A DNA stretch of 64,000 nucleotides, from positions 61,607,835 to 61,671,834 of the forward strand of contig NC_057726.1 in the NCBI RefSeq assembly GCF_004010195.1, written 5' to 3'. This document shows, piece after piece, positions 1 to 41,400 of this stretch (positions are counted from its first letter, which is position 1; every line of letters starts with the position of its first letter). The DNA is from Chiloscyllium plagiosum. Lineage: Eukaryota. A model generated the notes under the pieces. The model saw nothing but the letters and a program-made list of their open reading frames with translations, was not told the DNA's origin and did not search any database. The position numbers and the translations under genes were made by a program.

Positions 1-1747
1 GACAAATGGGTTTCATAGGTAAAATGTTAAACATGACATGAAATATCACATGACTAATGTGTACTTCTCGTGGGAGTTTGTTAAGTCGGAGGTCCACTCC
101 TAACTCCCTTCTGAAACGTTTCCATATGAAGTGATCACAGTATCACTGCGTTCCAAAATCCTCCTTCGTCAGCACTCACCTTTTATCATTAGTTTAATTC
201 TGAAAATATCGCTTCAGTTCGCAGTACTGCAGCTCGTCATCTAAGCGATCCATTTCATGTAGCAACTGTTTATCCTGGGAGCTCTGAGTTTCATGCCACT
301 CTCATCTTTAACAACCTTCGAAAACTTGAGTTTTCAGGAGGAAGCACTGGATTGATAATTTTATGCATCTTTATTTCTCCACTCCAGAGCTGATGTGGAC
401 AGTTTGAGGTTTGGCTGAAGATGAGGGATATCAAGACTGGGGAGCACATTTTTAAAGTGAGAGGACAGAGATTTTTAAAAAAGACATGTGGGGCAAACGT
501 TTTTACCCGTGCGTAATGAAGTTCCTGACGACATGATGGATCTGGAGAAAATTACAACATTTAAAAGCAACGTTTTACTTTGACAAGTAAATGAATAGGA
601 AAAGTTTGGAGGGATACAGGCCAGGAGTGGGCAGGTGGGGCTACATTAGATTAGGATTACATTCAGCCTGGACTGGTAGCACCAAAAACTCTGTTTCCAG
701 GCTGTGTGACTCTCTGACTATGACATTATCGAGGAGAATAGCTTCACATCCTCCATACTACTGAAGTTCCTCAGCCCGCACTTCATTCCGATAAATATCT
801 TCCAACATCTTTACGGCCTTGACATCCCTCAGGATTGAGCATAAGACTCCAGGTTGAGACTAATTCATGTTCAAATTAGGGGTCTTATGGTTTATGTCCA
901 CTTGTCCACCCACCTTCAAAATATTATAAACACACCCAGAACTTTACTATCAATTAAATATTTCTTCTCTAGACAATCACTAAAACGTGAATCATTCCTT
1001 CTGCTTGCTTTTTAAAAAATACCATTATGAGCAAGGCAGATTTGTCCATCCCTAGTTACCCTTGAGGGAAGCCTCATTGCTCATTTTTATGTGTAGTAGG
1101 AAAGCTGGCAGGTCTTGCTATTTTCTCATCAACCTGTTTAGCGATGTGGTGATATAGTATTGGACCCTTGGTGATTTATATTGGGATCTGTCGGCTCAGA
1201 AGTGGGGACAATAATACTGCACCACAAGAACCCCTGAGCTGACAGGTGCTGTTTGGAAAAGCATGGGACAGAGTTTTGAAAGCTATAAGATTAAATTGTC
1301 CAGTGCAAACACTGACCATAGCTGTGAAATCTTTAAGATTGAAATTGACAGCTGGAATTGTTGAAGAAAGATTTTTCAGGTCAATTGTTTTCCCTCATGA
1401 AATCCCAGCAATTGCCGAGTTTTCACATGTAGGTATGACTGTTATCTATGCGTGGATATACAATAAAGGACTTCTGAAGGAATTAAAGATAGATACCACT
1501 CGAGCAGTGATGAATCTCCATAGACAGGTGAAAATGACTGTCGCTATTGTTCGTTGTGGTTCCCACAATTGCTACAGAAATTCCAAGGTGACAAACAAGC
1601 CACAAGACAATTTTCATCAGGTAATTGTTACTAAGGAAGAAAGGGCACAATGGCAGTTCAGATATTAAATAGATTGCATGCAAAGGTACATTTGGATTGA
1701 TGGAATTAAAATGCCGAGTATGGAGGCTTGATGATAAATATTAAATA
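1..1747. repeat. Near-identical segmental copy of the gene A upstream region (about 14004..14316 plus 14849..16277)
   Basis: Base-by-base match with only scattered substitutions and small indels. The ORF track shows twin ORFs at 1246..1668 and 15779..16201. Confidence 0.95.
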
Positions 1748-3135: not shown

Positions 3136-3786
3136 TTGGCTGTTGCTGTTTAGAAAACGACAGGCATTAAATGCGAATGATGCAAAAATAACAGTTTTGG
3201 GAACTGTTGCGCACTTGTGGATTCAGTGGAGTTCCTCCTGCCTATCTATCCAATGACCGAGAAGGTCGTATAGGAGATCATGTTTAGTGAATGGTTGTTT
3301 TTCGCTGAGCAGGAACAAGTTCCCTAACGGAGCATAAATTTTAGTTGTGAAACAAACTGCATGCAAACTAAATGTTGATATAGAAACGCACTAACAAGTG
3401 CAAATTTCAACATTAGAAAACTTGTCCTGAACTTAGTTTTCAACTTGCGACAAGTTGGAAATGGTTTTGGAAACTTTGCTCTGGGCGTGGAAAGCTCCCG
3501 ATGTTAGATTGGTTTTGCAATGGACTGGTCAGCAATTCTTCGATGTAACATTTCCTAGTAGATACAGATATTTCAAATAGTTGGTTCTTAGCCTGACTGC
3601 AATGAACGTCAATAATGATTGCAGCACGTTTTATGATATAAAACCAAATACTCCATAGTGCACCCAGTAGTATCATCCATCTTCCCAATATGTTTAAATT
3701 CTTGCTTTCTTTGCCACCTTTATGCCTGCATATAATGTAGAATGGTCTTGCAGTTTGGGTGTTGATGCTTTCTTGGAATCAGCTAT

Positions 3787-3834
3787 TTACAGATTGGCGT
3801 ACGTCAGATTGTTACCTTCGCTTCCTTTCTTGGT
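3787..3834 (-). CDS. Gene A exon 7, terminal cytoplasmic exon with ITIM LTYANL
   Basis: Acceptor ttactttcacag, TKKGSEGNNLTYANL*. The frame continues past the stop to a relic ITSM TLYAGI and a second stop at 3694. Paralog at 29475. Confidence 0.8.
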   Translation of the reverse strand, partial: TKKGSEGNNLTYANL

Positions 3835-6800
3835 CTGTGAAAGTAAAATTTAATATCACGCATTATCCCATCATTGACTCTTTGCTAAACGCAGTCAATT
3901 TTTTAAATAAAAAGACTTCAGGGGAATTTCCTTTCATCATTTGCCAACTTCAGATTGTAACAGAGTTTATAATTATTTTTAACTGATTTCTCTCCACTCT
4001 GTAGATCTGCAGTAAAAGTTCCTGTTATTCTGATTTAAACTTCTCATAAAATAAGCTAGAATATCAACATTGCCCATTAAAGAAGCACGTTTTTGCTTCA
4101 ATTAAAATAGCAAATGAATGAAATGCCGGTGTATTAAATGTGTTTGGAATGCTGATATTGCAAAACATCACTTTCAACACCCAATTTCTGAGCCGTGACA
4201 GCCATTGTGATGTGCTTACCGATTGGGGAGACCTCAAGTTGCAATTTACTACCACCTTTACCCCATTGTTGCTGATTTACCGAACTCTGGGACCCCGGCG
4301 AATATGGTGAGCCTTGGCCGAGATGGTCGGGCCCAGTACAGTATGGGTTAAACATCGGACCTTTCGATTCCTACAGTTTAGATTAGGACCAAACGTCATT
4401 GAACGTCTTTAAAAAATGGTAAAGCTTCACTTGATCATAGACGGTAATCTTCTTTGTTTGTCTGGGATTCTTATTTGTCTTGGTGCTGGATTCGACAGGG
4501 TAGGCATAAAGAGGTTTGTTCTGAGTTCAGTACTTTGTATGTAAAATCGGTATTTGCCACTCTTATCAGTTCAGTTGCTATCATTATTACTGCTAGTTCA
4601 TAAAAGGAAACAAGGATAATTTTCATTGCATTCTCACGCAAAACTCACAGTAAGATCTAGCTGTCCGTTTGATATCTCCCCTGATTTCTATTTCCGACAA
4701 AATCGGCAAAAGAAACATCGACATCGGTTTAATTTTGTCTTTTTTGTCATAGCATAACATGCAAACAAGGAATAAGAGCAAGGCACTAGGCCCTTAAATC
4801 CTGCTCCATCATTCAACAATGTCATGGCCGACTCTGTCAACGCTACATTCAGATTCCCCTCGATAATCTTTCATCCGCTCTATCATCGACAATTTATGTA
4901 CCCCGCCCTAACATGTTTAATGTTTCCGCATTTAGTGCCATTTGGGCTGGACGCTGCCGCAGGACATAGCAGGCAGAGCAGCGGTAGACGACCAGTACGT
5001 GGCCACCGCCATCCGACGCCTTAAAACGGCGGTGCTCGGACCGGACGTAGTGCACCAGTTGGAGGACGCTCAGGTGTGCGGTGGGATCCCGTCCGCGCTC
5101 ACCCCAGCCCGGCCGGAATTTCACATTGGCCCCAACGTCCCGTACTTCCCGCGGGAGCCTGTGCCCCACAACCTAAGCCGCCTCCGAAATTTTAACTTTG
5201 TTTCGTTTAGGGAAATAAAAAGAAGAGCCCTGTACAGACTGCTGCTGCACACCTTACTTGAAAGCTGCTAGCATGCAAATGAGGCAGGAGCAAAACATAC
5301 CTAGCACCTCAGAATAGCCAAGAAATCCTCAGAGTCTGAGAAAGACGCAGCCTTGATGCTGTTACCATCAAAAGGAGAGGAGGAAACTCTTGAGATACTC
5401 CATGCAGAAGAGATGGATGATGCTGCCCATGTTCAAGTCTGAGTCAGAGGAATTGGACCTGGGCAAAAACGTCCAAAAGAAGCCATAAGAAAAAGAACAG
5501 GCCTACATTCCCAGACTTGGTGGGGGAGGGATGTAGAGATTAGAACTAGAGCCAGGTGAATCTCATTGACAATGAGATCCTTAAATGGCCCAGGTTAAAA
5601 ACTCCAATGAGTGTGCCCTGGCTGACAGTTATGAACAAGAGCATTCCCCATCCACTTCTGTTTTGATTTAGTCCCTACCCTCCCCTTCACTGTTTTGATC
5701 ACACAGCACTGTCCCTTGATGTGAAGGGCAGTGCTTGTCACTGGTCACCCGGGTGTTTTCCTATCTTCCTGGTGGTGGAAATTGAATAAAGATTGGTGCA
5801 CTTTGTGTCTTCCACTGTGTCTCAAGAAAAAAAAAATAGTGCCATTTGAAGAAGGGATTTTCAAAGACTTACAACTCTACAACAGAAACGAAAAATCCTC
5901 ACCTCTGTCTTAAATAGACAATCATTTACTTTGAAACTTAGACTTCTACTTTTAGATTCTCCCACAAAAGCAAAGATCCTTTCAGCAACCAAATTTGTCA
6001 GGATTTTATATATTTCAATTAAGTCACCCCTAACTCTTCTAAACTCCAGAGGTATAGGCCTACCCAATGGTTTATAGCTTTTGAAAAGGAAGCGAGAAAT
6101 CAAAATTAACATAGGTCCCAAAGAGAAGGAGGTGGGGAACAAAATCATGGGGAACCAGGAAATGGTAGAATACACTAGCAGCATTCTAAATTATTAAGTA
6201 TCCAAGGGCAAAACGAGGAGTGGAATTAAAGAAAATAACTGTCACTGGAGAGGATGCGTCAGGGAAACTAATGGGGCAAAAGACTAATATGTCCTTTGGA
6301 CCTGATGCAGTACATTACACAATATCAAGGGAAGAAGATACAGTAGTGGATGCACCAATAGTAATCTCCCAGAAATCCTTAGATTCTGAAAGAAAAACTC
6401 CCAGAGGAGTAAAACTTTTCCAAACCAACATCTTTATATAGACAAGAAATAGTTATAAATAAGCTAGTTAGCGAACGCTTGAGTCAATTATAAAGGATGC
6501 AGAGTATTTCAAAATACATAATATCATCAGAGTCAGCTTGCCTTCATGAAGGGGTAAACATGCCTGACAAATTGACTGTATTTTTATTGAGGTAAAAGGA
6601 GGGCAGATGAAGCTGAAGCAGTAGATGCAATATTTTTGGATTTTCAGGAAACATTCACGAAAGTAGCACAAACTAGGTTACTTTATCAGATTAAAAACTC
6701 ATGGTGTTGCGGGCAGTACATTAACATAGATAGAGGATTGACGAAGTAACAGAAGACTGAGATTTGGGATAGGGTGGTAGGGCATTTTCAGAATGGAAAC

Positions 6801-9800
6801 CTGGAACTTCTGGTGTGACACAGGAATTAATACTGGGGTCACAAAGTTTCCAGTTATATATATTTATATATATTACATTTGGATGTAGCAAGTGCATGTA
6901 CAATGGCCGAGTTTATGGTTAACATTAAAGTAGGCTGGAGGCAGGATGATGAGAATTACACAAAAATCTTTAGAGGGATTTAGCCTGATTACGTGAATGG
7001 GCAAAGATTTGGCAGATGGGATATAATGTGGGAAAATGTGAGATTTATACACTTTGGCAGAATGAATGGAGGGGCCAAATATTCGTTAAATGCAGAAAGC
7101 CTGCAGAATGCAACGGAGCAGAGGAATTTTGGAGTCCCAATTCGCGAATCACAAAAAGCTAGCACGCATTTACAACAGGCAATAGAGAAGGCAAATGGAA
7201 TGCTGGCCTTTATTTCAGTGAGAATGGAATATAAAAAGCAGGGATATTTGCCAAAACTATACGAGGCACAAGCTAGGCCAATGTCCTTCCATCAAAAGGT
7301 TGACCAGTATTGTACGCAGTGATGTAGAATTGCTCTTATCAATCCCTTGCATTAATGAAATAGGGAGCTGTTCTTCTGATAACAATTCATGACAGTTTGT
7401 ATGATCAACATTTACTGAAATTAGCTTTGCATTCCAGATTTTTCGATTGAATTAATTCCCATTAGCTGCCCTAGTGAGATTTAAACCGATGTCCCCATGC
7501 TACTAACCTTGGCAACTGGATATCTGCCACTCGTTCTGTTTTATCAAGTCAAAAGTAGAGCATCCCCTTCCCTTACTCTACAGTGTCTTTTTTTAAACGA
7601 CTCCATTATCGCAATGACTAAGAGAAAGTGAGGACTGTAGATGCTGGAGGTCAGAGTCGAGAAGTGTGGCGGTGAAAAAGTACAGCAGGTCAACCAGCAT
7701 TGGAGGCTTAGGAGTGAAGATGTTTGCCGAAACGAACACTCTCCTGCTTCTGGGATGCTGCGTGACTTGCTGTGCTTTTCCAGCACTAAACTTTTCGACT
7801 CCATTATCATAATATTGATGTTGTATGAGAGTGACGTGGATATTTTATTCTTGACAATTCTGGCAGCATACCTGGGAATTGACAGTACTTTCTTCCGCGG
7901 GTCTGTGTTTGGAGAATCCTTTGTTGGTTTTCAATTTTACTGCAGCAGAGGCGGCATTTTCTTCAGCTGGTGCTTTTCTAAGCTAGAAAATAAGATATGA
8001 AATATCGAGAGAAGCGCATTTGATTTTACAGCCAGCCATTGGAACTGAACAATAGAATATTAACGTGCACACAGTAGTTAATCAAACAAGCTAGAAATTG
8101 CATTCTGTCAACTCTCAATGATTTGCATCTAATATCTCACCAATGTGTTGGGGAGTAATGTTCTAAATATGAAACCCAGAGCATTTAACGCATTTACCTA
8201 CAATTTAACATACAGCTGACGAAAAATAGACATTAATTAATTCCTCGTTTATCTCTAGCTCTCTTCAATCTTGTTGTAGCCTCGGCAGTTTCCTTATTCC
8301 ATAATTAACCCAGTCTATTAGAAGATCAGGCAGCGAAGCCTTTGGCTGTTCTCCTAATACTTTTGGAATCTTGTATTCTCTGACTGGCAACCAACAATTA
8401 GATTTCTGGCAAAAATTCTCCCCAAGCGCGTCTACAGTCATTATTTCCTCTCCCTCAGAAACTACGAAACAGCCTGCCCCCAGCACTGCTAACAGAGGAA
8501 TATAATGCAGAAAGGCCTGAGATTTTATGTCGCACACTACTTTAGGAAGATGTCGTGGTTTCGAGAGGATATAACAGAGATTTACGAGAAGGGTCCTAGC
8601 GTTCAGGGATTTCAATGATGTTTAGAAGCCTGGACATGATGCTTTACTTAGATCAGTTACGTTTAAGGGGAGATTTAACTTAAATGTCTAACATCTTGAT
8701 AAATTGTGATGGAATAAATTAGGATAAACAATTTTCATTGGCAGGATGTTTGAGATTTAGGCGACAAGATTCGTTTTCATTGGTAAATAATCTGGGGAGT
8801 ATGTTTGTTCTGCAGCCCAGTGAGCTGCCCGCAAACTGACAGAGTGACAGGAAGAATTCGATAGGAAGTTTCAAAAAGGGAACTGGATTGACCTGAAAAA
8901 TGTAATAAACAGGAGAATAGCACGAGACCGGAACAAATGACTTACTGCCTCATAGAGGCAGTAGAGGTGCTCGCTCTTCATCCCGGGCAATGTAATTCTC
9001 TGTTCTGTGAAATCAAAGTAATTTTGACTGAATGCAAAACTCATTGCTATCCTTTCCATGCACCCACCTCCCATTTGTTTGGAATATAATGAATATTGTC
9101 TCCTTACCGGTTGGACATTTTGATTTGCTTCCACCGAATTTCTTCCTCTGCCTAAGAGAAAGCAAAGTAATATAACGTGAGTGACAGAATCACTCATTCA
9201 ATGTCATGTCTTCGCTGCTAGAAACGTTTAATTTTTATATAAAGTTCAGAAATCTAGTTTGACAATGTTCAGCAGCACCAAGCTCGTTATGCTGTGTTTT
9301 ACCTGCTCACTGCTGTCATCGCGCTTTACCCAATGATGCAGAGTCAGTGACAGTGCAAGTGCAAGTCGGCGTCTTATTTAATCTACAAAATTAGAATGGA
9401 AATAAAATCTGCGGATGTGCATATCTGGTTGTGAGTTCGAAAATGCCCACTTAACCTTAATGCCAAATGCCAAAATCCATTCGAAACATTCGAAAAATGT
9501 TTCCTTCTCAGGAACTGGACCTCCACTGAACTATAATAGAGAACACTCAAAGTTTCGATTTCAGCACCATGGAGGTGAATAAACCGAGTGTATAGTTCGA
9601 ATAAGAAGGTGAAATATTTGCTTTTCAAATCCGGTTAGATCCTCATATCCTAAATTTAATGCCAGGCCTTTGATTTCTCACCTGCTCTCTATGCTTTTTA
9701 CACTGGGTCTGAGGAAATAAAAAGTATACAGTGAAATAAGAAAGATTCTTACCAGCTGATGCTTTCAATTTGAGTATCAAGAAAATGCTTATGATTAGTA

Positions 9801-12800
9801 CCATCGCCAATGCCCCTCCTGCACCTCCAATAATCATCGGACGATTAAAATCTTCACCTACAGAATCAACACGTGATGGAAGTGAACATGTGTGGAACAC
9901 AGGAGTGACATACACAGAGCAAAATGCACAGGATGATAAATTGCAAAGGTGTTTCTCAGGATAACCCAACTGTTAACCAAATTGGACAGTTTTAATTTTG
10001 TTGGGAAAACCTGTACAAGGTCCTTAATTCGCATCAGACCCAATGAATTGCAGCTCAGCTATGTATTTTATGGAGAAAACACATATAATGACTTAATGGT
10101 GTGAGAAACTTTATCTGCATAGGAACACTGTTTGCTATGAGTAAAGAAAGTTGTACTTGCTCATTCATAGAATCCGAGAAGAATCATAGAATCCCTATAG
10201 TGTGTAAACAGGTCATTTGGCCCAACAAGCCCACACCGATCCTCCGAAAAGTATTGCAGCCAGACCCTATTGCTCTCCATTTCCCCTGAATGATGCACGA
10301 AACCTACACATCCCTTAACGCTATGGGCAATTTAGTTTGGCCAATTCACCCAACTTGCACATCTTTGGACTGGGGGAAGAAACTGAAGCACCCGGAGGAA
10401 ACCTGCACAGACTCGGGGAGAATGTGCAAACTCCACAGTCGCCGGAGGCTGGAAGTGAAGCCAGTTTTTTGGTGAATCAACAGTGCGAACCACTGAGCCA
10501 CCATGCTGCCATTTAGGATCTTCCCCACACCACACACCCCAATCCCTATTAGATATATTTTCAATCTTACCTCGATTAAAGGTGTAGCTGACGCTGGTGG
10601 GCACCTTAAGACAAGCATGAGATACCAGACAGGTATAAACTGCACCACTCTGCACAGGCTGTGCATCTTCCAATGAACTAGTAACCTCATAAAGCCCATC
10701 CACGGTCTTGTTTTTCACAGTCTCCATTCCGGTATGAATTTTGAAACCATCTTTTAACCAAGAGATTCCTAAATCCTCTGGGTAAAATGCAGTCGTTTTG
10801 CATTCGAATTTCAAATAGTTCTCTGAAATCTCTTCTACGGGAACGATTTTCTGGAGTTTCGGAGGAACTATAACAGAAAATCAAACCTTTTAAAACATTA
10901 ATTTTCATTCTCTTTTTTTCACCCTTCACACTCGACCCGGTTCGGCACCCCATGTAATACTGTTCCATTACTAATGTGACAACAGTTTTCCTTGTTATTC
11001 TGTTTGAAACTTGGTATTTGCACTTATTTTTAAAAATGCTCAGCAAAATGTTTGGATCATTTGCAAACGATGCACAACGATCATAAACATGGGTAGAAAA
11101 ACTTTAATGAAATGCAGCTATCAGAATCGTCGGGGTTTAGCTTTATGTCAGTGAATTCGGTTTGATGAACTTTTTTTGGAAGACATTCTACCTGGAGGTA
11201 ACACACGAATTAGGAGCTGAAGTAGGACAGTCAATGGGTATCTCTCCATCCTGGAGGCTCCCTGCCTCCATTCCTGATGAAGGGCTTTGCCCTTTCCAAT
11301 CTAAACTTTGGTTTCCAGCATCTGCAGTCCTCACTTTTGCCCAGCCAATGGGCAGTCAATTCAGCTATTTGAGCCTGATCCAACAGTTAATATGATCTTG
11401 TCTGAGTTCTTTCTGTTCCTGATTGGCATTCCCGGTTTAGTATGAAACCTTTTTTTGAAGTATCAATTCTACATTACTCAAGTGAACTTGTGCCCTCTCC
11501 ATCTACAAGCGGTGTTTAGCTGCGAGCTGATCTCCTGTCATAACTCCCATTGCATAGAAAGAATAAGTTACAAACACGAGCGCAAACGTTTTTCGGCATG
11601 TTTGCTGCTGCCCTTCCTTCATTTTGCCTGCTATGCCTACATCAGAGAGTATCCATTTGGCGAACCGCAGAGGGCCAACCAGAGGCAATGGGCAACTTCA
11701 CTGCCTTACACGCTTTAGGATTGTGGATAGAATCCAGTATTGAGGGCAACGTCAACACTTGCTGTCTCACTGAATCATGTGATTCATTTGTTAAAATAAG
11801 CATTGGCATTTCAAACATGTTAGTATTGGGAAAATGCGCTCCCGAAACACTAATCAATTCCACTCTTGAACTTACTCTGCCATTCACTTAGGTTATGGTT
11901 GAACTGTACCTCAACTCCATTTGTCCGGTTTTATTCTATTTCCTTTATCCCCAGGATTAAATTTACTTGATGTCGATCTCCAAGTTTGAAGGATTTGCGA
12001 CAGAATAGTTTGATCGGCAATTTGGGGTCAAAACATTGTCTTGTGTCTGTTGAATATTAATGGCTGTGGGTATGTTTTCATTCACCTTAATTTGACGTGA
12101 ATGCATATTGTCGATGCTGATAAGATGGTCTTTATTATCTTGTATCAAAGCAAGAGCTGTTGGAGCTGTTAAAATTATTCTTATGAAAGATTATGACCTG
12201 AAATGTTAATTGTGTTTTTGATCAACAAGGAAGTTCAAAGGTATCAGAGCGGACAGAAAAATGCAGTTGAGACCATAATCAGATCAGCCATAATGTTGAT
12301 GAGTGGCTGAGTACACTCAAGGGATGAATGGTCTACTCTTGCTTCTAATTCTTATGATCGTATTACCTATGTAGATGTTCAGACATGTTTCAAATAATTT
12401 CTGTTCATATTCCAACTTTTCAAAATCCGTAGCACATTGTTTTGTTTTCTTTTTGATTCTATTGTCACAGTTTAGTACCGTTATTTTGGTTTGAAGTAAA
12501 CTGTGCATTTTGCCTCATGATACAAAAGACAGAAAATGCTAGAGAAACTGAGTAGGTCTGGCAGCATAAAAACATAATAAATAGTTGCAGGGGTAGGCCA
12601 TCTGACTCGCTAAGCCTGCTCTGCCATTCAATAAGCTTATCGCTTTCTTGGACTCAGCTCCACTTACCCGCCCTCTCACCTTTATTTTCTTTAATGTTCA
12701 AAAATCTAAGTATTTTTGCCTTAAAAACATTCATCGATATAGGTAGCTCCAGTGCTTCACTGGAAAGGGAATTCCTCAGATTCACAATCCTTTGAGTGAA

Positions 12801-13931
12801 GAAGTTGGACCTCAACTTAGTCCTAAATCTGCTTCCCCTAATTTTGAGGCTGTGCGTGAAGTGAAAGGAGAGTTAACGTTTCCAGGTCCAGTGACCTTTC
12901 TACAGAAACGTTCTGAAGAAGGATCGTTGAATGCTAAACGGTAGCGCACACAGATGCTGCCAGACCTGCTGAGTTTTTCCAGCAATTTCTAGTTTTGTTT
13001 CAGATTTCCAGAATGCATTTTTTTTTATTTTATCTTACTGCATGAATTAATGTCATCCTAAAATTTGAACAGTTATCCCATTTCACTATCTTGACGCAAA
13101 ATCAACTGCTTCTGCACCAAAAAGGCACTCATTGAATTAATAACACTGCGCAATGTCATGATCACAATGAGCAATGGAATTGATCTTGAGAAATGGTGTA
13201 AGACGTACGAAAGCTAATCAACAGCCGTTGTACAGCGAGGTCGTTGCTACAATGTGAAGCAAATACGCTGTAACCGAGTTTTCTCTAATTATTAAAGCTC
13301 AGATCACATGAATTGCATAAAACAGCTGAAGAGTTGTTTGTCCTGGGTGCAGTGCCACTTACCGCACACTGTCAGCAATGAGCCGCTTTCTGCTCCATGA
13401 GTGGCTTGCTGATGCTTTATTTTACAATGATACATTCCAGAGTCTGCAAAAGTGACGTTGAGAATATGAAGCGAGCCTCTTCCTTTCTGGACATGAAAAC
13501 GCTTTCTGTTGTCTGGTTCCAGAAACGATTCCTCGTTGTGTCTCCACCAAAATATTTCAGGAACATGTTCAAATATTGGAAATGTGCAGAACATGGAAAC
13601 ATTGTCACCTCTGGCCGCCTCTAAGAGTTTGGGAAACTGATGTACTTTGCTCGAAGTTACTTTAGTGACGACTGAAAAAAAAGTAAAACCATGATATAGC
13701 TGTAGACAGCTGACATGAAATAACATCGGGAGGAGTAAAATCTGCAAACAATTGAGAACAACCGCACGCATTAAATTGGAGAAGCAAGACATCAAACTTT
13801 GCAATTTATGGAAGCTGTAAATATGAAATAAAATCTAGGTTACTCTCAAAGGACAATTCGTAACATATAGGAGTACCTGGCCAAGCCATACGCAGAAGAG
13901 CCATGAACAGAACCGCTGCTCTGACCAACAT
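3787..13931 (-). CDS. Gene A: IgSF type I membrane receptor (leader-V(J)-C1-TM-cytoplasmic ITIM), SIRP-like / VJ-C1 family, 322 aa; join(13877..13931,13363..13671,10571..10867,9753..9857,9108..9151,7872..7982,3787..3834)
   Basis: Seven exons with GT-AG boundaries and compatible phases (1,1,1,1,0,0) total 969 nt and are open to TAA. They encode a signal peptide, V-set and C1-set Cys/Trp motifs, a hydrophobic TM and a terminal LTYANL. Six of the seven exons have a same-phase paralog of similar length in gene B. Confidence 0.85.
4925..5265 (+). mobile_element. Tx1/L1-clade non-LTR retrotransposon ORF2 fragment
   Basis: GC-rich island encoding LTPARPEFHIGP..REPVPHNLSRL..LYRLLLHTL, recalled as typical of the Tx1 ORF2 C-terminal region. 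Confidence 0.6.
5645..5836 (+). mobile_element. Tx1-like 3' UTR with poly(A) tail
   Basis: Similar to 39060..39220. AATAAA is followed by an A-run. Confidence 0.55.
6180..7280 (+). mobile_element. Degenerate CR1-type LINE RT fragment
   Basis: Remnants of the LDFQKAF, GVPQGSVLG and KANGMLAFI motifs with many stops. Confidence 0.75.
7620..7800. mobile_element. Short hairpin element derived from a Penelope terminal repeat
   Basis: Starts gagaaagtgaggactg, has internal inverted repeats, and is flanked by direct repeat cgactccattatc. Confidence 0.65.
7872..7982 (-). CDS. Gene A exon 6, cytoplasmic with degenerate ITIM/ITSM
   Basis: Acceptor ttattttctag, donor CAG|gtatgc, 111 nt, phase 0/0. LRKAPAEENAASAAVKLKTNKGFSKHRPAEESTVNSQ aligns without gaps to exon 7. 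Confidence 0.7.
9108..9151 (-). CDS. Gene A exon 5, membrane-proximal cytoplasmic
   Basis: Acceptor ttctcttag, donor CCG|gtaagg, 44 nt, RGRNSVEANQNVQP. A 44-nt paralog lies at 38038..38081. Confidence 0.85.
9753..9857 (-). CDS. Gene A exon 4, transmembrane (uncharged, GxxxG-rich)
   Basis: Acceptor ttctgtag, donor G|gtaaga, 105 nt. EDFNRPMIIGGAGGALAMVLIISIFLILKLKASA. Confidence 0.9.
10185..10512 (-). mobile_element. HE1-like tRNA-derived SINE in the gene A C1-TM intron
   Basis: Minus strand begins ggcagcatggtggctcagtggtt (A box); body homologous to 42585..42899. Confidence 0.85.
10571..10867 (-). CDS. Gene A exon 3, Ig C1-set domain
   Basis: Acceptor ttctgttatag, donor G|gtaaga, 297 nt. Motifs FECKTTAFYPEDLGISWLKDG..DGLYEVTSSL..YTCLVSH. 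Confidence 0.95.
13363..13671 (-). CDS. Gene A exon 2, Ig V-type domain with J-like G strand
   Basis: Acceptor ttttttcag, donor G|gtaagt, 309 nt. Motifs VHQFP..VSMFC..IFWWR..SLHILNVTFADSGMYHC..SGSLLTV. Confidence 0.95.
13877..13931 (-). CDS. Gene A exon 1, signal peptide MLVRAAVLFMALLRMAWP
   Basis: ATG at 13931, 55 nt, phase-1 donor CAG|gtactc. Same length as the gene B leader and similar in sequence. Confidence 0.85.
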
Positions 13932-14396
13932 TTTGCAAATGGAATATAAGCGTGGTCTACTTGATGTAAACACGGGCCGTATTCTGAGTGGCTAGTGTGG
14001 AGCGACAAATGGGTTTCATAGGTAAAATGTTAAACATGACATGAAATATCACATGACTAATGTGTACTTCTCGTGGGAGTTTGTTAAGTCGGAGGTCCAC
14101 TCCTAATTCCCTTCTGAAACGTTTCCGTATGAAGTGATCACAGTATCACTGCGTTCCAAAATCCTCCTTCGTCAGCACTCACCTTTTATCATTAGTTTAA
14201 TTCTGAAAATATCGCTTCAGTTCGCAGTACTGTAGCTCGTCATCTAAGCGATCCATTTCATGTAGCAACTGTTTATCCTGGGAGCTCTGAGTTTCATGCC
14301 ACTCTCATCTTTAACAATTTGCAATTTATGGAAGCTGTAAATATGAAATAAAATCTAGGTTACTCTCAAAGGACAATTCGTAACATATAGGAGTAC

Positions 14397-14451
14397 CTGG
14401 CCAAGCCATACGCAGAAGAGCCATGAACAGAACCGCTGCTCTGACCAACAT
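14397..14451 (-). CDS. Identical second copy of the gene A signal-peptide exon (alternative exon 1)
   Basis: Identical to 13877..13931 including the donor, at an offset of 520 bp. Confidence 0.6.
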
Positions 14452-29333: not shown

Positions 29334-29475
29334 TCAGCTTCTTTTATTCGTTGCCAGCTTTATACCTGCATATACTGTGCATTTAGTCCAGCGATATAGG
29401 TGGTGATTTGTGTTTTGGAATTAGCAAGTTTCAAGTGGCATAAGCCAAATTGTCATCTCGGCTTCCTTGTTTAGT
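29334..29475 (-). CDS. Gene B terminal exon: coding to TGA at 29431 (TKQGSRDDNLAYAT*), followed by a frameshifted ITIM/ITSM relic
   Basis: Same acceptor as gene A exon 7 (ttactttcacag). A 1-nt deletion lies inside the ITIM, and relic CTVYAGIKLATNKRS* sits in another frame. Confidence 0.7.
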
Positions 29476-32400
29476 CTGTGAAAGTAATGTTTGATATCTA
29501 TTGTTAGTGCATTGTCACTCACTACTTAAGATTATCATGGTTGAAAATAAAGGCTGTTAGCAAATTTCCTTTCAATTCCCAATTTGCCTCATGACCTCTA
29601 TTACGCAGAAGGACAAGAGAAAAAGATACCTTGGGATGTCACCATCTCCATACTGACTTGGAATTATACCACTGCCCCTTCACAGTCGCTGATCAAAGTA
29701 ATCAAACTCTTTTCCTAACAGTATTATAGGTGTCTCAACACCACATGGAGTGCAAAGGTTCCAGACGACAACCCACTGTTACCTCCTCAAGATCAATTAG
29801 ATGGGCAAGAAGTGTTGGCCGAGTCAGTGCTCCCCACATGTCATGAATGAACATGAACTTGAGTAAGAGCAATGTCGAGACACTAAAAACAGAATATGGC
29901 CTATCAAGTCTAAAGGCTTTTTGTGAGGTAAGTCAGTCATCCTACTCCTTTATTTGATCACGGTAGCCCTACCCTGTAGCCCCTTTCTTCAAGTGCTCAT
30001 CCAATTCCCTTTTGAAACAATTGATGGTCTCTGCTTCCACCACCCTAATGGGCTATATGTTCCAGGCCAATATCACTCAAATTTCCTTGGATTTCCTCTA
30101 CATGGATTTTCCAAGATCCCAAATGTATTTTCCCAAGATTTTGTGCTGTCAATTAGTGGGACAGGTTTTTCCTTGTCTCCCTTATCTAAAGGTACTATAA
30201 ACTTGAACACCTTTATGATGTCATACCCTCCTCAATCTCCTTTCATCAAGGCCAATAATCTCATCTTTTCCAAGCTGATCATGCATCTACTATTTATGAT
30301 CTCTAATACTTACGAAGTGTATCTCATATGCACCCGCTCAGGACCTACTTTTCCTCAACAGTGAAGACAAGAGGTTGATTCAGTATTCTGCTCATTCATA
30401 GTGCCTCTGCTCTTTCAGAGTATTTATTGATTTATTTAAAAGTAGACACTGATTAATGGACTATAAACTACTTCCGTTTGAAAAATCTTTTCCTTGCTTT
30501 CTCTCACCTCCATCCACAGATGTTTTGCCATATTTATTTTCTGAACAAAGGTGATTTCTCATGACTGTACTGCTCATACATTTATTAACAGAGCCATATC
30601 CTTTGTTTTGATGCTGTCCTTGTGTAAGGTCACACACCTTTTAATATATATTATCCAGTTTTGGTTATCTTGCAAACACGTCTCTACAATGTTATCATAT
30701 CAGAGCTGTTTTTCTGTACTCATGTGATCACTTCATCAAGCCTGTAACAAATTCTTGGTTTGAGACGAAAAAACCATGCAGATTCTGGAATCCAAGGTAG
30801 ACAGTCAGGAGGCTGGAAGAGCACAGCAGGCCAGGCAGCCATCAGGAGGTGGAGGGAGTTTACATGTTACTGAGGATTATATCTGCAATAAATGCCGTTG
30901 GTTGCAAATCCGATCAGATCGAATGGATCAGTTGGAAAGATAGTTAGAGGCAATGCAGAACTTACAAGAACAAGGGAATGTGATGGATGGCAGTTGTAGG
31001 AAGGGGGGAAAGTCGCAGATCCAGTCACACAGATGGTTTAACTCTCTGAAAGGCAAGAGTGGTTGGCAGGTAGTGCAGAAGTCTTCTGTGACTATCCCCA
31101 TTTCAAACAAGTATGCTGTTTTGGAAAATGCATGAGGTAATGGATTCTCAGGGGAATGCAACATGAACAACCAAGGTTTTGGTATTGAGACTGGTTCTTA
31201 GGTAATGAGGGGTACATCGGGTTCCAAGATATCGATTGTGTTAGGTGACTCTCTCGTCCGAAGTACAGACAGATGTTTCTGTGGTCAGCAGTGGAAAATC
31301 AGAATGATTTGTTGCTTCCCTGGTGCCAGGACCAAGTGTGTCTCAGTGAGGGTACAGAATGTTCTCATGGGGGATGGGGCCAGCAGAAGATCATTGGACA
31401 CATTGGAAACAATGACATAGGAAGGGAAAAGGATGAGATTCCGCAGGGAGATGACCGTGAGTTAGGCAGGAATTTAAAAAGGAGGTCTTCGAGAGTAGTA
31501 ATATCTGGATTACTCCCAGTACTATGAGCTCGTGAGGGCAGGAATGCGAGGATAGAGCAGATGAACGCATGGCTGAGGAGCTGGTGTATTGGAGATGGAT
31601 TCACATTTTTGGATCATTGGAATCTCTTTTGGGGTAGAAGTGATCTGTACAAGAAGGATGGATTGTGCCTAAATTGGAGGGGGGCTAATATAGTGGCTGG
31701 GAGATTTGGTCGAGCTGCTTGGGAGGATTTAAACTAGGAAGGTGGGGAGGTGGGACCCAGGGAGACAGTAAGGAAAGAGATCAATCTGAGACTCGTACTG
31801 TTGAGAACAGCAGCCAGTCAAACAGTCAGGGCATGCAGGAACAAAGCAGAGAACAAGGTAGGACTGATAAATTAAACTGCATTTATTTCAATGCAATGAC
31901 CTAAACAGGGAAGGCACATGGACTCAGGGCACGGTTAGGAACATGGGACTGGAATATCATAGCAATTACAGAAACATGGCTCAGGGGTAGACAGGACTGT
32001 CAGCTTAATATCCAGGATACAAATTCTACAGGAAGGACAGAAAGGGAGGCAAGAGAGATGGGGGAGTAGTGTTTTTGATAAGCGATAGCATTATAGCTGT
32101 ACCGAGGGAAGATATTCCTAGAAATACATCCAGGGAAGGTATTTGGGTGGAACTGAGAAATAAGAAAGGGATGATCACCTTATTGAGATTGTATTATCGA
32201 CTCCCTAATAGTCAGAGTGAAATTGAGAAACAAATTTGTAAGGAGATCTCAGTTACCTGTAGAAATAATGGGGTGGTTATGGTAGGGGATTTTAACTTTC
32301 CAAACATCGACTGGGACAGCCATAGTGTTAAGGGTTTAGTTGGAGAAGAATTTGTTCAGTCTGGACAAGAAAATCTTCTGAGTCAGTATGTGGATGTACC

Positions 32401-35400
32401 TACGAGAGAAGATACAAAACTTGACCTATTCTTGGCAAATAAGGCAGGGCAGGTGACTGAGGTGTCAGCGACCATAATTCTATTAGTTTTAAAATAGTGA
32501 TGGAAAAGGATAGATCAGATCTAAAAGTTGAAGTTGAAAATTGGAAAAAGGCCAATTCTGATGGTATTAGGCAAGAAGTTTCAAAGTCTGATTGGGGGCA
32601 AATGTTCGCAGGGAAAGTGATGGCTGGAAAATGGGAAGCCTTCAGAAATTAGATAACGAGAGTCCAGAGACAGTGTATTCCTGTTAGGGTGAAAGGAAAG
32701 GCTGGTAGGTGTAGGTAATGCTGGATGACTAAAGAAATTGAGGGTTTGGTTCAGAAAAAGAAGGAAAGTATAGACAGAATAGATTAAGAGAATCCTCAGA
32801 AGAGTATAAAGGCAGTAGGTGTATACTTAAGAGGAAAATGACGAGGTCAAAAATGGGACATGAGATAGCTTTGGCAATTCACGTTAAGGAGAACCCAAAG
32901 GGTTTTTACAAATACATTAAGGACAAAATGATAATTAGGGAGAGAATAGAGGTTGCTCAAAGCTCAGGAAAGTGGACTTTGTGTTGAACCGCAGGAGATG
33001 TGGGAGATATTAAACGAATCTGTTGTATCAATATTTGCTGTGGAAAAGGACATGGAAGGTATAGAAAGTAGGGAAATAGCTAGTGACATCTTGAAAAATA
33101 TCCATATTACAGAGGAAGAAGTGCTGGATGTCTTGACATGCATAAAAGTGGATAAACCCCCAGGACCTGATCAGGTGTACCCTAGAACTCTGTGGGAATC
33201 TAGGGGAATGATTGCTGGGTCTTTTACTGAGGTATTTGTATCACTGAAAATCACAGGTGAGGTACTGGTAAACTGGAAGTTGGCTAACGTGGTGGAAAAG
33301 TTTAAGAAATGTGGTAAGGACAAGCTAGGGAACTATAGACCAGTGAGCCTGATGTTGGTAGTGGGCAATTTGTTGGAGGGAATCCTGAGGGATAGGATGT
33401 ACATGTATTTGGAAAGGCAAGGACTGATGTGGGATAGGCAACATGGCTTCGTGTATAGGAAATCATGTCTCACAAACTTGATTGAGTTTTTTGAAGAAAC
33501 ATCTCTATGACTATGACTCGAAGTTACAAAGAGGATTGATGACGGCAGAGCAGTAGCAGTGATCTATATGGATCTCAGTAAGGCGTTCGACAAGCTTCCC
33601 AATGGGAGACTGGTTAGCATGTTTAGATCTCATGGAATGCAGGGAGAACTAGCCATTTGGATGCAGAACTGGCTCAAAGGTAAAAGACAAAGGGTGGTCG
33701 TGGAGGCTTGTTTTTCAGACTGTAAGCCTGTGACCAGTCAAGTTCTACAAGGGTCAGTGCTGGGTCCACTACATTTGATCATTTAGATGAATGATTTGGA
33801 TGTGAGCATAAGAGGTATAGTTAGTAAGTTTGCAGATAACACCAAAATTGGAGGTGTACTGGACAGCAAAGATAGTTACCTCAGATTATAACGGGATCTT
33901 GATCAGAAGGGCCAATGGGCTAAGAAGTGGCAGATTGAGTTTAATTTAGATAAATGCGAGGTGCTGCATTTTGGAAAGCAAACCTTAGCAGGACTTATAT
34001 ACTTACTGGAAACGGTCCTCAAGAGTGTTGCTGAGCAAAGAGACCTTGGAGTGTAGGTTCACAGCTCCTTGAAAGTGAAGTTGCAGGCAGATAGGATAGT
34101 GAAGAAGGCGTTTGGTATGCTTTCCTTTGTTGGTCAGAGTATTGAGTACAGGAGTTGGGAGGTCATGTTATGGCTGTACAGGACATTGGTTAGGCCACTG
34201 TGCAATTCTGGTCTCCTTCCAATGGGAAGGATGTTGTGAAACTTGAAATGGATCAGAAAAGATTTATATGGATGTTGCCAGGGTTGGAGGATTTGCGCTA
34301 TAAAGAGAGGTTGAATAGGCTGGGGCTGGTTTCCCTGCAGCGTCAGAGGCAGAGGGGTTTCCTTCTAGAGGTTTATAAAATCATGGTGGGCGTGGATCAG
34401 ATAAATAGACAAAGTCTTTTCCCTGGTGTAGGGGAGTCCAGAACTAGAGGGCATAGGTTCACGGTAAGAGGGGAACGATATAAAAGAGAGCTAATGGGCA
34501 ACTTTTTCACACAGAGGGTGGTATGTACATGGAACAAGCTGCCAGAGGAAGTGGTGGAGCCTAGTGGAATTGCAACATTTAACAATCATCTGGATGGGTA
34601 TATGAATAGGAAAGGTTTAGAGCGATATGGACTGGGTGCTGGCAGGTGGGACTAGACTGGGTTGGGTTACCTGGTCGGCATGGACAAGTTAGACCAAAGT
34701 ACCTATTGCCATGCTGTACGTCTCTGACTCTATGACTCTAAGTCGACATTTCAAATGTAACCTGAAGAACGTTTACATCCGAAACGTCGACTCCTCCACC
34801 TCCTTATGCTGCCTGGTGTCAGTTACGAATTCTGTCTACTTCAGTAGAACAGGCCTTAATCTGACCTTTTGCATCATCAGAATTTGTAGATATATTACTC
34901 TATGTCTCTTAATCTAAATGATTTAAATAGATCACAAAATTGCAGAAATAACAGTGTGCCGAATTGAAAACGTTCAGTTTGTCCTCACTCTTTGCTTCAT
35001 ATCTTCTAAACTATTCTCTATCGATGTATATGTATTACCTGAACTCTATCAGTTCTTGTTTTTCTCTTGAACATGTTGAATGCCTCTTGGAAGTCTCTGC
35101 ACACAGTATTTGTAAGTTTCCTGTTTTCTACCTTGCAAGATAAAGTTCCAAATTCTCTAAAATACTTGCCAAACATGATTTCTCTTTTGACAAGATATTT
35201 TGACTTGTGCTAATCCTACTACACATTTCTAACTGCATTTTTTATACTCTTTTAATAGTATGTTGCAGACCTTTGTTAAGGAATAATGTCAGGTGAACGG
35301 CCCTGCAGTTCCCTGTTTTCCCTTTCTTTTTCCTTGAAAGTGAAGTTATATTTTCCAACTCTCAATCTGATGCGAATACTTTTGGAAATAAGGAATTTTG

Positions 35401-38400
35401 TTTGACCATTGTTCACATAGATGTCTTCATTTCCTGTGAAACTGTCTGTTGTCTCTGTTTGTGAGTGCAAATATTTACTTTGGGATGTCTCTTTTTTGTA
35501 TACTTAATAATGGTCTTACAATCAAATTTTATATTTTTAGCTAGTTTGCTCCCCCCCCCATTTTATCAATTTTTTGATGCATTCTAATATCATATTTAAC
35601 TTATTGAGTGAGTCATGGATGATGTTCCTGACTGAGTTTTTATTATTTAACTAACTAAATTTTGCTCAGCATCTTGAATTGGGTCTTTAAATCCTTCCCA
35701 CTGTGCATTTAATTATCAGCATAATAAAGTTATATAATCAACCTATTTTCACTGCATTTTGATATAATTGATATTGTTTAAGTTAATGATTCATGCTCAT
35801 GATTGGAACTTTGAAACCTAATATGGAATTCAATGGTTTTGTGGTAATTATTTCCTGGCAGACTTAGTAATTAATAAAACATTATAATTATAATTAATAA
35901 TAATTATGATAGCTAGATAGATTAGTTATCTATGATAACTTCATCCAGAGGCAGCTGTAAAATGCATTGCTGCATGAAGTGATCACAAAAAACTCTGCAA
36001 ACTTCTCTTCCAGATTGTCCTTTAAAAAATTTAATTGACACTCCCGATGTGAAGGTTAAATTTACCCAGGACAAATACATTTCCTTTGTGTCAAACTGCA
36101 AAGGTTTAGTTCTATGTTTGGTCCACAATACACTTTCTGTCATGTGTCCTAAAAACTGCTCCAGCTATCATTTTCTGACTCCTGATATTTCCATTTACCA
36201 CGGAGTGTGATTCTGTTTTGTGATTTTCTTTCCAATGTTGCTGCAACAGGAGTGATTCCAGCCTTGGGTGACTGCCTGTGTGGAGTTTGCACATTCAACC
36301 CATGTCTGCGTGGGTTTCCTCTGGGCGATCTGGTTTCCTTCCACAGTCCAAAGATGTGCGGGTCAGGTGGATTGGCCATTCTAAATTGCCCATAATATTA
36401 GGAGAATTAGTCAGAGGGAAATGGGTCTGGGTGGGTTAATCTTCGGAGGGTCGGTGTGGACTGGTTTGGCCGATTAGGGAATCTAATCTAAAAAAAATCC
36501 TTCTTATGAGAGCCACCTTCCACTTTTACAATGTTGAATTCCTCTTGAAATGTGTGTACCTTGGAATATTTATTCCCCAACCTTGGTCACCTTGTAGTCA
36601 TATCTCAACAGTAGCGATCCAATCAATTTACAATACCTATATTTGTGTAATGAACACACCTATTTTCTTGAAGGTGCTTCATGCATTTAGAAGAAAAGAG
36701 CCTTTAATTCCACTACTTTGCTTCTTATTCTTGCATTGACTTTATTCACAGATGCAGAACTGAAGCTAACTTACAGTCCCATCCTGTTTTTTTTTTAACT
36801 ACATCTCTCCATTGTTCTATTGTCTTCATGTCTTATTCTATCTCTTTGGATTGCTCAATCTCGGTTCACCATAACTGTCTCTCTCTACTACTTTAATACC
36901 TGACGACAGCTCTCGTAATTGCAATTGTCCCACTGAGTTTAAGTAGCGCCCACATAAATGAAATGGCTTCCTGTTTCGCAAATGATCAAAACCCTTTTGT
37001 CCAACAGCATTGCTTGAACCATATGTCGAAGTCTCTAATCTGCTGTATGCTATGTCAACTGGTAACAGGCCAGAGATTATTACCTGATAATTTGTGCACT
37101 GTTAATTTGGGCATTTTAAAACTCAGCAGAGCATTATTCCTTGCATTGGTTTCTATGACAACGAGATCGTCCCATCTCACTACAGGTTCCTTCAAGGTCA
37201 TGGGGAGATGACCTTAACCTTGGAACAAGGCATGTCACACAGCATTTCAAGTTCCCAGTGATGATGATCATAATTTGGCCGGGTTGTGCTATGCAAGTGT
37301 TTCAATTTAGCAACTAAGCACCTGGGAATTTCCTATTTTTTAAGCTGTTTGAATTATAAAGATTAGAATGAGAAGTCTCTTCTTTAAATTAGCTGCCTGA
37401 AAGCATGTCCTAGTTAATTACCAGAGACAGAAAAGTGCTTTTCTGGCAGGGTAAGGAAGTAGACATTGAGTTTTCTTCATTCAGAATGCGTACACAATAA
37501 GAATGTAACTGCCAGAAGAGAGTGCAGAAGAGATCTACTAGAATGGTGTCAGGAATGGGGAACTTCATTAATCCTGGGTAGACTAGACAATTTATGATTG
37601 AATTGCGCAGGGCGGAAAAAACCAAAGGGACGATTGTTTCAAGTTTTTTACAATTACGAGAGATTTCAATAAAGCAAAAATGATTTCAATTGTTGATCTG
37701 TCAGCATGCAGAGGATAAATTTACAATTACTGATAGAATAACTATGGGATTACGAAGATTTATTTTGTGGAAACCTCTATAGTACTTTTGAATATCTGGC
37801 AGAAGCAAAGTTAGTAGAAATTAAAAAAAAATGAAGAAAAGATTACCTAAAATGCAAAAATACAGAGCTAGGTACAAAGAGTGAGGAGCTGGGCTGATTG
37901 ATTAGTTATTTTCTAAGACCTACCCAACAGTAACAGTCTCCTTTAGTCTATGATTCAATAAATGTTCTCAGCTGATTGCAATACTTCTTGCTATTCCTTC
38001 ATAACTGTTCTTCTATGAAGAAAGATTATGCCCTTACCAGCTGTTGAGTTTCATCCACTTCTACAGAATGTTTCCTAACACCTAAAGGAAAGAAAAGAAA
38101 TCTATACTGAATGTAAAATATAATAACACAATTATAGCAATGAATAAATGAATATATTGGAGCTGATTCAGAGGAGGCTTACTCGATTGACACTTGGAAA
38201 TAACTGGTTGTTTCATGAGGATAAGTTCAATAGACTCGGTTTCTTTCCACTGGAGTTTGGAACAATAAGAGGTGATCTGATTGCAGTGTATCAGTTACTG
38301 AACTATTTGACAAGATGGACATAGAAAGAATACTTTCTTTTGTGGATGAATCCAGAACAATGGGATACAGTGTACCAATTAGAGATTGTCCTTTAGAGAC

Positions 38401-41400
38401 AGAAATGTGGAAGGTTTCTTTTATCACAGAAAATTGTGCCAGTTTGGAACTCCCTGCTCCAGAAGGTGATCGTTGAATATTTTAAAGGCAGTAGTGCTTG
38501 GATTCCTGTTAGACAAGGGAAATGAATGGTTACTGGGGGATAGTTGGGAATGTGGAATACCAAACACGAACTGATCAGTGATAACCTTATTGAGTGATGG
38601 TAGGTCTGGAGCAGCTGATTGGTCTACTTGTGCTTTTAACTCATATATACTGTATGCTTGTGGGAATAATGTATTGAGTGCACAAGCATCAATAGGGATC
38701 TGCCTTCCAAAGATCTAGAGCTCCGTGTTGAGTACATTGTCTTCCCAAATCCTCCCTTGGTACTAATCACAACAGAGTAGACTCTTCCTCTTGTGGGAGA
38801 GTGAATTGACAGTTTAGTTTGCATTGCAAAGTTACTTTGGACATAACAATTGGGAGTAAAGTGAACCAGATTGGCATAGTGATTGCAACCAGGTTGATAT
38901 TATTGACTGTGTGATCCTCGATTGGGGTTGTAACCCTGGCTGACCAATATAAACAGGAGATTCTGGATGCCCCTGGAGAAGGAAAACTTGGTGTCTACCA
39001 GTAACCTCGAGGTTTTTATGACGAGGTTGGCACCATAGTGTGTAGAGTGTTTTATTCCCCCCTCTGATTCTATTTTGATTTAATCTCTACCCTTCCTTTC
39101 AATTTTTCAATCATGTAGGAGCATGTCCCTAAGGAGCATTGGCGACTTGGGTGCTTTTTCTTCCTGGTGGTGGAATATGAATAATGTTTTATTCACTCGT
39201 TGTTTCTTCACTGTGTCCTGCACATATATGCACACAACATGGGTGCTGGGGAGAAATAAGCACGACTGCTGTTTGGTGGTAGCATGGAGGATTGAGGAAA
39301 AATATATAAACAGGGGACTCAGGATCTCCTCACTTCATGGACTGACTCTGGGCTGGATGGCAACAGCCAGTTTACCGTACACTTGTAAATAAAGGGCGAT
39401 TTGGTGACAGTATACCAGCGTCAGTGTCGTTATTTCAGTTAACTATTCTGATATCACTTTAAAATGAGTACACTGGCACTGCTACTTTTAGAACTGGATT
39501 GGGGTGGGAGTAATTTGTTTACAAAATTGAGGAAATAGTTTGAATGAGGTTTATGTTGTCATGTTGAATTGTCAAACTGCTTCTAACATCAACTTCATTC
39601 TTTAAAGATGTAGAAAGGTGTTCACTATTCCTGCATAGTTATTCACTATTCATCTGCTCTTTATGTCTTCTAACAAGTAAAATTGCCTCTTGGAAGATGA
39701 AACATATTCAGCAGAATAACAAAGTAGAAGTTCATAGAAGTTCATAGAATATGCACATCTGGTATATGAATGCTGGTATACTGTCACCAAATATCATTGG
39801 GACTTGGAAACTAAAAATATTCAGCAAAATAACAAACATTCTTACCAGCTGATGCCTTTAACTCAAGTCTTGTTAAAATGATTATCAATAGTAAAATTGC
39901 CAGAATGCCACCAGCCCATCTAGAGATCAGCAGATAATTGAGATCTTTACCTATAGGATTAATAACACTTGAATGAGAAACTGCAGAGTACAGCGTGATT
40001 TCGACACAGAGAATCATGATTCAGACACAGGAAGGCGATCTGCAAAATAGTATCCCAGGACGATCACATCCAATAAACATCAATAGAGACTGATCCTTTT
40101 TATTTCAATGGGTAGTATGTGTAAAACGATTATAAGGTGTATCACATGACATATCAGTCACAATCCCACAATACAACTTATGGAGGGAACAATTCCATAG
40201 AGATTGAGGAATCTTCACTCCTGGTCATTTCTTAAGAGGAAAAACAGTTACATATTATTGATATCATCGTGTTAGCATTACACATGATTGATATCATCGT
40301 GTTAGCCCTTTATTTACATTGAAAGCACCAGCTGGAAAAAATCATCAGATTTAACACTTCCTGTAACTTTTGTCAATTAATATATGCATCTTGCTTTCAT
40401 TTAACTCGTTTAACATGACAAAGCATCCAATGCTCTCCAGAGGACTGTTATCAAGCAGTCCAGCCACATAAGGCACATTAGAACAAATGGATCAGAAACA
40501 GAAACTCCTGGAGCAAATCAGCTGGTCCAGCAGCATCTGTGGAGAGAGAAACTGATTAAATAATTTGAGTCGAGTGGCCCTTCTTTAGAACTGATAGCAG
40601 CTAGGAAAAAGTGGTATGTATGTTGAAGACAAATATTGGGGAATGGAGAGTGGAGGTGGAGAAAGGGGTGAGCAGAAAGGCAGAGATGGAGCCAAAAGAG
40701 AGAGAACAATAAAAAAGGATGGATGACAACATGCCAGGAAAATAAAAAGCTGACATTGGTGATCATAACTAGATGAAAATTGGTTGACTGTGCTGAAAGC
40801 AGCTCATGTCATTGCCAGGATCTGCAGTGTGAGTGTCGGTAAAGGATATGAAAGTAGTATTCAGGCACTAAAATTATTGAGCTCGTCATTGAGTTCTGAA
40901 GGCTGCAATATCCCCAAGTGGAAAATGAAATGCTGCTCTTCCAGGTTGCACTGAGGCTTGATGCATCACTGCAGCAGGTCTGAGACAGGAATGATAGCCA
41001 GAGAACATGATGGTATGCTGAAGTGGCAGCAACTGGAAACTAATTTTTAAGGACAGAATGAAAGTTTGTTTACAAAGCTGTTGCCTGGTCTGCATTCTGT
41101 CTCAGCAGTGTATAGGAGACAACATTGTGAGCTGTGAATATAATATATAGGTAATCACTGCTTCACTTGGAAGCTGTGTCTGGATTCGAGTGTGAGGAGG
41201 AAGGAAGTAAATGGGCTACCACAATATTGAACCTACTTCTACTTTCTTCCCAAAATCTAGCAACAGGAATGACAGGGCAGAGCTGCTGTTCCTGCCACAC
41301 AGACTTAATCTCTTAATACCTTGATTCAACATTTTATCCCATTCTCAGCTCAGTTCCCATTAATATCCATGATTTATGTGAAACGTTGCATCTGTTTAGA

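Follow-up and report, generated by a model that had tools for sequence, protein, structure and literature searches.

SIRP receptors have two C1 domains, and B7-H6 (NCR3LG1) is laid out as V-C1-TM. The human SIRPs comprise inhibitory, activating, non-signalling, and soluble members, whose origins are called unknown in the accessible part of PMC9652883; a J-like GxG motif in the V domain is given as a SIRP feature in the available sections of PMC11599192. Among the CD300A/CD300C paired receptors, duplicates degenerate or gain early stops as another member persists, according to the accessible text of PMC12447643. Sharks possess UrIg2, a non-rearranging VJ-C1 receptor, and the available portion of PMC12227049, which deals with it, contains no occurrence of ITIM or SIRP. 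We use ITIM for I/L/V/SxYxxL/V and ITSM for TxYxxV/I, as defined in the accessible part of PMC5112662.

The window analyzed here, a 64-kb stretch of Chiloscyllium plagiosum DNA, contains gene A, which belongs to a shark cluster of tandemly arranged V-C1 membrane receptors (V-C1-TM; Table 1). As in the SIRP family, V and C1 domains occur in a tandem cluster, the V domain carries a J-like motif, and multi-Tyr tails are found beside short tails. In the ectodomain of gene A, Pfam recognized a V-set and a C1-set domain, as expected of a SIRP, and NCBI calls the C. plagiosum protein P0001 and many relatives SHPS-1-like. In contrast to SIRPs, there is one C1 domain rather than two, and a repeated exon module supplies the tyrosines of the tail. 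The V-C1-TM layout is also that of B7-H6, a name under which NCBI lists several members of the family; B7-H6 was not in the best 60 of 11,929 profile matches. Because NCBI names vary within one clade (SHPS-1, NCR3LG1, tapasin-related, and PD-L1), they do not fix identity.

When the family profile was compared with the PDB, UrIg2 came first (9dmx, E 5.8e-35) and SIRP-alpha sixth (2wng, E 6e-28); apart from UrIg2, human SIRP-alpha was the best match that was neither antibody nor titin, with antibody chains and titin scoring higher. UrIg2 shares a single-exon V with C1, but the 9dmx entry is V-C1-C2-C3. A confident two-domain structure with an unstructured tail was predicted for a Heterodontus relative. 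The Foldseek rows listed were antibody-type chains only and offered no distinction between SIRP and other V-C1 proteins, and a single-V PDB search returned generic Ig matches only. Since SIRP-alpha ranks behind UrIg2 and antibody chains and Foldseek is undiscriminating, SIRP-family membership of the shark cluster is not established. No flanking marker gene for SIRP synteny was recognized within the 64-kb window. By analogy, gene A would resemble an inhibitory member of a SIRP-type cluster in birth-and-death turnover. It would differ from the CD300A/CD300C case in that there, as far as the available text of PMC12447643 goes, the inhibitory member kept its Tyr and the activating one decayed, whereas here inhibitory-type duplicates lose motifs. 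If the family were orthologous to SIRPs, it would bear on the SIRP origin that PMC9652883, in its accessible part, calls unknown. No description of this chondrichthyan V-C1 family or of its modular tail exon was found in the literature searched, from which subscription papers were mostly outside reach, and the available portions of PMC13262535 and PMC10751288 contained nothing on this shark V-C1 family.

The leader, V, C1, and TM exons of gene A and its exons 5 and 6 are free of stops and frameshifts. The hydrophobic core of the TM segment holds no charged residue of the kind that would suggest an activating receptor. The J-like motif of the V domain reads ExG; in a motif comparison, GxG was found in all six relatives that matched the pattern, and one further protein gave no match. 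An extra Cys at the end of the V domain (13363-13372, minus strand) and another after the C1 F strand are likewise present in the Chiloscyllium punctatum relative P0042, and the pair could form an interdomain disulfide. Upstream, a local tandem duplication of ~520 bp (13798-14849, minus strand; 93.5% identity) has produced two identical leader exons, beginning at 14451 and 13931. Within the tail region, a 54-nt stretch (8946-8999, minus strand) has phase 0-0, an AG, a strong GT donor, and one Tyr, and is possibly cryptic; it was not accepted as an exon, since neither the homologue tails nor gene B have anything equivalent. Neither AATAAA nor ATTAAA was present in the 1.4 kb downstream of the last exon of gene A.

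Table 1. Positions of the features discussed in the window (64 kb)
Feature	Position	Strand	Remarks
Copy of gene A upstream region	1..1747	-	95.5% identical to 14524-16280; inferred to precede A′
Last exon, terminal copy of module	3694..3834	-	Tyr at codons 12 and 35
ITSM (TxYxxI), now past stop	3721..3738	-	Removed by TAA
Premature TAA, codon 16 in frame	3787..3789	-	Gln in A′; also in run X1
Retained ITIM (LxYxxL)	3790..3807	-	Predicted protein end, directly before stop
Exon X, further tail repeat	4431..4520	-	Frame open, Tyr at each end, splice sites weak
Exon 6, first internal copy of two-Tyr tail module	7872..7982	-	111 nt, phase 0-0
Asn35 (AAT)	7878..7880	-	Tyr in A′ and in 8/8 homologue rows compared
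Ser12 (TCT)	7947..7949	-	Tyr in most homologues; common to A′, hence the older change
First cytoplasmic exon of gene A, short	9108..9151	-	Protein identical to duplicate A′
Gene A transmembrane exon	9753..9857	-	Open frame; tblastn with homologue tails
Gene A Ig C1 exon	10571..10867	-	Pfam C1-set, 1e-10
Gene A Ig V exon	13363..13671	-	Pfam V-set, 4.6e-12; sequence identical to P0001
Gene A leader exon	13877..13931	-	Second leader copy begins at 14451
Gene B, upstream, more distant paralogue	29334..48658	-	Open V, C1, TM, and short exon

The protein P0001, named SHPS-1 (SIRP-alpha)-like by NCBI, has a V domain identical to that of gene A. Its model begins at 14787, takes the V and C1 of the window, and continues with a second C1 and a tail; this second part differs from the window at 5/98 positions in C1, 0/14 in the short exon, 5/37 in exon 6, and 2/46 in the last exon. 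From these sequences we infer that P0001 is a fusion of gene A with a tandem duplicate, A′, lying just past the left edge of the window, A′ being known from the NCBI protein model and not from DNA. The public NCBI gene model at the locus therefore appears to fuse two genes, hiding the truncated tail of gene A. The first exon of P0001 differs from the signal-peptide exon, and the model is without a TM segment, skipping the TM and tail of gene A. Non-coding divergence between the two upstream copies is 2.5% (44/1734), and A and A′ group together in the tree (99/95). The C1 branch is longer in A than in A′ (0.04 versus 0.014). In A′, three of the tail tyrosines survive, those of the ITIM and ITSM in the last exon among them. 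The changes particular to A are Asn35, three or four others in exon 6, Thr14Asn, and the stop.

The two-Tyr tail exon is an old repeated module, present from chimaera to rays. The repeated unit measures ~37 codons and carries Tyr at position 12 and again at 35 or, in relatives, close to it; one to four copies per tail were found in Callorhinchus, Heptranchias, Heterodontus, Mobula, Narcine, and others. One search scored 8000 candidates, of which 24 were relatives near the query in length, and from a representative library the best 150 of 1598 hits were taken; exon borders in the relatives were deduced from protein alignment. Exon 6 aligned without gaps to the first internal Heterodontus unit, which has Tyr at both codons; the duplication is thus real but ancient. 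The preliminary description of this DNA had derived a four-Tyr tail from exon duplication, and the tail is indeed built of repeated exons, but the count was wrong, as there is a further two-Tyr exon (exon X). Exon X matched the second internal Heterodontus repeat exon (tblastn E 0.006 to 0.13 with three Heterodontus tails); its first motif is spoiled by Pro at +3, and it is missing from the NCBI model of A′. At codon 3 of exon X, runs X1 and X13 have Leu for Pro. Some NCBI isoform models are without internal units, which suggests exon skipping of these units.

For counts over internal and terminal copies of the module, five single-unit proteins were moved to the internal class by hand, P0147 was dropped, and identical units were collapsed; Fisher values for internal versus terminal units are descriptive only, because related sequences are not independent. 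Tyr12 was missing in 6 of the 30 distinct internal units and in 0 of 31 terminal units, with different branches of the tree showing Ser, Asp, His, or Asn instead, and the ITIM pattern was present at the first Tyr in 16/30 internal units. Only two residues follow the second Tyr of internal units within the exon, and the +3 residue is thus encoded by the next one; +3 was hydrophobic in 25/27 terminal units. Tyr35 was present in all 27 profile-aligned internal units, a figure biased upward because the unit profile missed four units without Tyr35, which were read by eye, and a 31-residue Heterodontus exon. Against this 27/27, the loss of Tyr35 in gene A is unusual. The donor of the internal copies may derive from a Val codon in a terminal exon that was duplicated. 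As any phase-0 donor reads Val in frame, it is the exon-end position alone, not the Val, that hints at an origin from the terminal-exon ITSM.

Exon 6 itself is as first described: its frame is open between AG and GT flanks, and codons 12 and 35 encode Ser and Asn. Pyrimidines occupy 15 of 20 bases at the acceptor. The seven residues said to be shared with the last exon (K3, N9, A13, K21, S24, S32, and T33) were listed correctly; the match at S32 is coincidental (AGT versus TCT, with Asn in A′). As stand-alone evidence, the pairwise match between the two exons was rejected, since 43/111 nucleotides are identical and the best chance match reached 50/111. Its protein score of 14 was reached at 17 of 125,335 window positions, and at least seven identities at 397 of these positions. 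The register of the alignment comes from homologues and not from the pairwise match. Homologues carry Tyr at both codons, contrary to the possibility, raised with the original claim, that they never do. Both codons are one base from TAT, but this proximity is uninformative as evidence, because it is shared by every codon that one substitution can make out of a Tyr codon (14 codons).

The ITIM-ITSM label given to exon 6 is not supported. At codon 12, the closest relatives have TAYATL, TAYAPL, and TEYAPL (TxYxxL-type) and one true ITIM, LAYATL. The second Tyr usually falls outside an ITSM, since the following exon contributes Thr as the +3 residue (16/27 internal copies); strict TxYxx[VI] was found in only 5/27. 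After splicing, codon 35 of exon 6 likewise falls outside the ITSM pattern, and +3 is Thr in A′ too. Read-through of the exon 6 donor (7830-7871, minus strand) places Val at +3 and meets a stop 8 codons on; with Tyr35 present, such read-through would give a short isoform ending in an ITSM.

The first motif of the last exon of gene A retains the ITIM pattern, and the ITSM lies beyond the stop (Table 1). Two codons of this exon are one transition from a stop, codon 16 (as Gln, the A′ state) and codon 29, and both sit between the ITIM and the ITSM; the position of the stop is therefore unremarkable and does not need selection. A stop in a last exon should escape nonsense-mediated decay. If expressed, gene A would yield a full ectodomain with a single C-terminal ITIM, and, to judge from ITIM/ITSM biology, the protein would recruit SHP-type phosphatases weakly.

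Other individuals were consulted through sequencing runs. In run X1, from a second individual, a contig spanning 3289-3970 differs from the window at one place, 3386, which indicates that the stop is real. X1 also has a further exon 6 replacement, Ser32Arg, and shows no difference at codons 12 and 35 among 40 of 658 substitution rows listed. Organism B (run X13) has two contigs at 3815/3818, and in each of them codons 6 and 7 of the last exon show two replacements. These data bear on a technical explanation, that the differences are assembly errors or that the assembly placed two alleles, A and A′, one after the other across the gap. An N gap (1748-2247) does lie between gene A and the A′ upstream region, X1 has a single contig at last-exon positions 3815 and 3818, and Asn35 is without direct confirmation in another run. 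The single X1 contig, however, does not prove absence, as contigs drop variants, and Organism B has two contigs at the last exon. Each of the seven X1 contigs listed has 1 to 9 letters that are not those of the window, over 459 to 910 bases (at most ~1%), which is less than the 2.5% between the upstream copies, and the X1 contig at 3289-3970, stop included, departs from the window only at 3386. We regard an artifact as very improbable.

The preliminary description held that three of four motifs in gene A were disabled specifically and took this to suggest selection for reduced signalling. The divergence of A from A′ does not support specific disabling. Ser12 is found in A and A′ and Asn35 in A only, so the two Tyr losses are separate events, the first of which predates the duplication. 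Asn35 is one of five amino acid differences in the 37 codons of exon 6, and the chance that these include the site is 0.11 to 0.14; the chance of substitutions striking at least one of the three tail Tyr is 0.18. Over the four exons, 12 amino acid differences were seen versus 11.5 expected neutrally at 2.5% non-coding divergence, and C1 divergence was 0.86 of the neutral expectation. Exon 6 alone had 5 changes versus 2.2 expected, or 2.3 times neutral (P 0.07, uncorrected). When tail changes were polarized by outgroups and codon distances, all six polarisable ones fell on A (binomial P 0.03). The 6 or 7 changes on the A branch compare with 2.85 expected at 2.5% divergence (P 0.07 to 0.03); at 5% divergence, the excess is gone (P 0.49 to 0.33). 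The asymmetry indicates that A′ is constrained and A is not, and by itself it does not separate drift from selection. The longer C1 branch of A and its altered J-like motif point to relaxation beyond the tail.

The tail losses of gene A, both Tyr of exon 6 and the stop, thus probably reflect relaxed constraint on a redundant duplicate. Tyr12 of the labile internal exon would have been lost first, as in other lineages; gene A would then have been duplicated, with A′ keeping the terminal ITIM and ITSM while A drifted. Decay is consistent with the last exon of gene B being broken too, and is opposed by the intact V, C1, and TM frames and exon 6 splice sites. Read as relaxed constraint, the gene A finding is ordinary turnover in an immune-receptor cluster.

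The same asymmetry would also be expected if selection, after the duplication, had favored A in the role of a decoy or weakly signalling companion to A′ and had fixed its tail changes, a history that would resemble the non-signalling members of paired-receptor families. We think this unlikely. The 6/6 polarisable tail changes and the 2.3-fold exon 6 value are in its favor, but most changes lie outside motif sites, the two Tyr changes differ in age, and total divergence is neutral. Also in its favor, the stop leaves exactly one whole ITIM, is seen in a second individual, and cuts gene A at nearly the same place as gene B, and the ectodomain and TM frames are open; against it, codon mutability accounts for the position of the stop, and Tyr35 would have been without a hydrophobic +3 after splicing. 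A broader form of the idea, that an early SIRP-like cluster was tuned like a dial through the two-Tyr exon (by copy number, skipping, and selected Tyr loss), with A as the selected low-signal partner, strikes us as rather doubtful. Were selection on the tail demonstrated, the locus would offer an early case of signal tuning inside a receptor cluster.

It is quite unlikely that gene A is already a silent pseudogene whose frames are open only through youth. In favor of a pseudogene are the C1 divergence from A′ (0.86 of the neutral expectation), the altered J-like motif, the NCBI model that skips the TM and tail, and the RNA depths that follow. Against it, immune ectodomains often diverge fast, and the leader, V, C1, and TM exons and exons 5 and 6 contain no stop or frameshift. 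In the single-cell RNA run X21 (12,955,460 records, ~2% of the run), the bins for V, TM, and the last exon showed no coverage, in a small sample of what may be the wrong tissue; the X21 exon 6 bin is confounded by a repeat near 7622-7786. Depth over the last-exon bin was 2.85 in run X23. No RNA run was among the holders listed in the run search.

Exon 6 was not found in gene B. The last exon of gene B (29334-29475, minus strand) has a stop at codon 15 that removes the +3 Leu of its ITIM, and its ITSM-like stretch is read in a different frame, which would imply two frameshifts. Its TM exon (39846-39950, minus strand) has Arg-Trp at the helix start, compared with Gly-Cys in Heterodontus relatives. 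ORF text and self-matches showed many decayed fragments with RT-like frames, together with short interspersed repeats, at 23757-24289, 27119-27616, 32009-34736, 46142-48040, and 56993-57576; the decayed fragments we take to be LINE-like.
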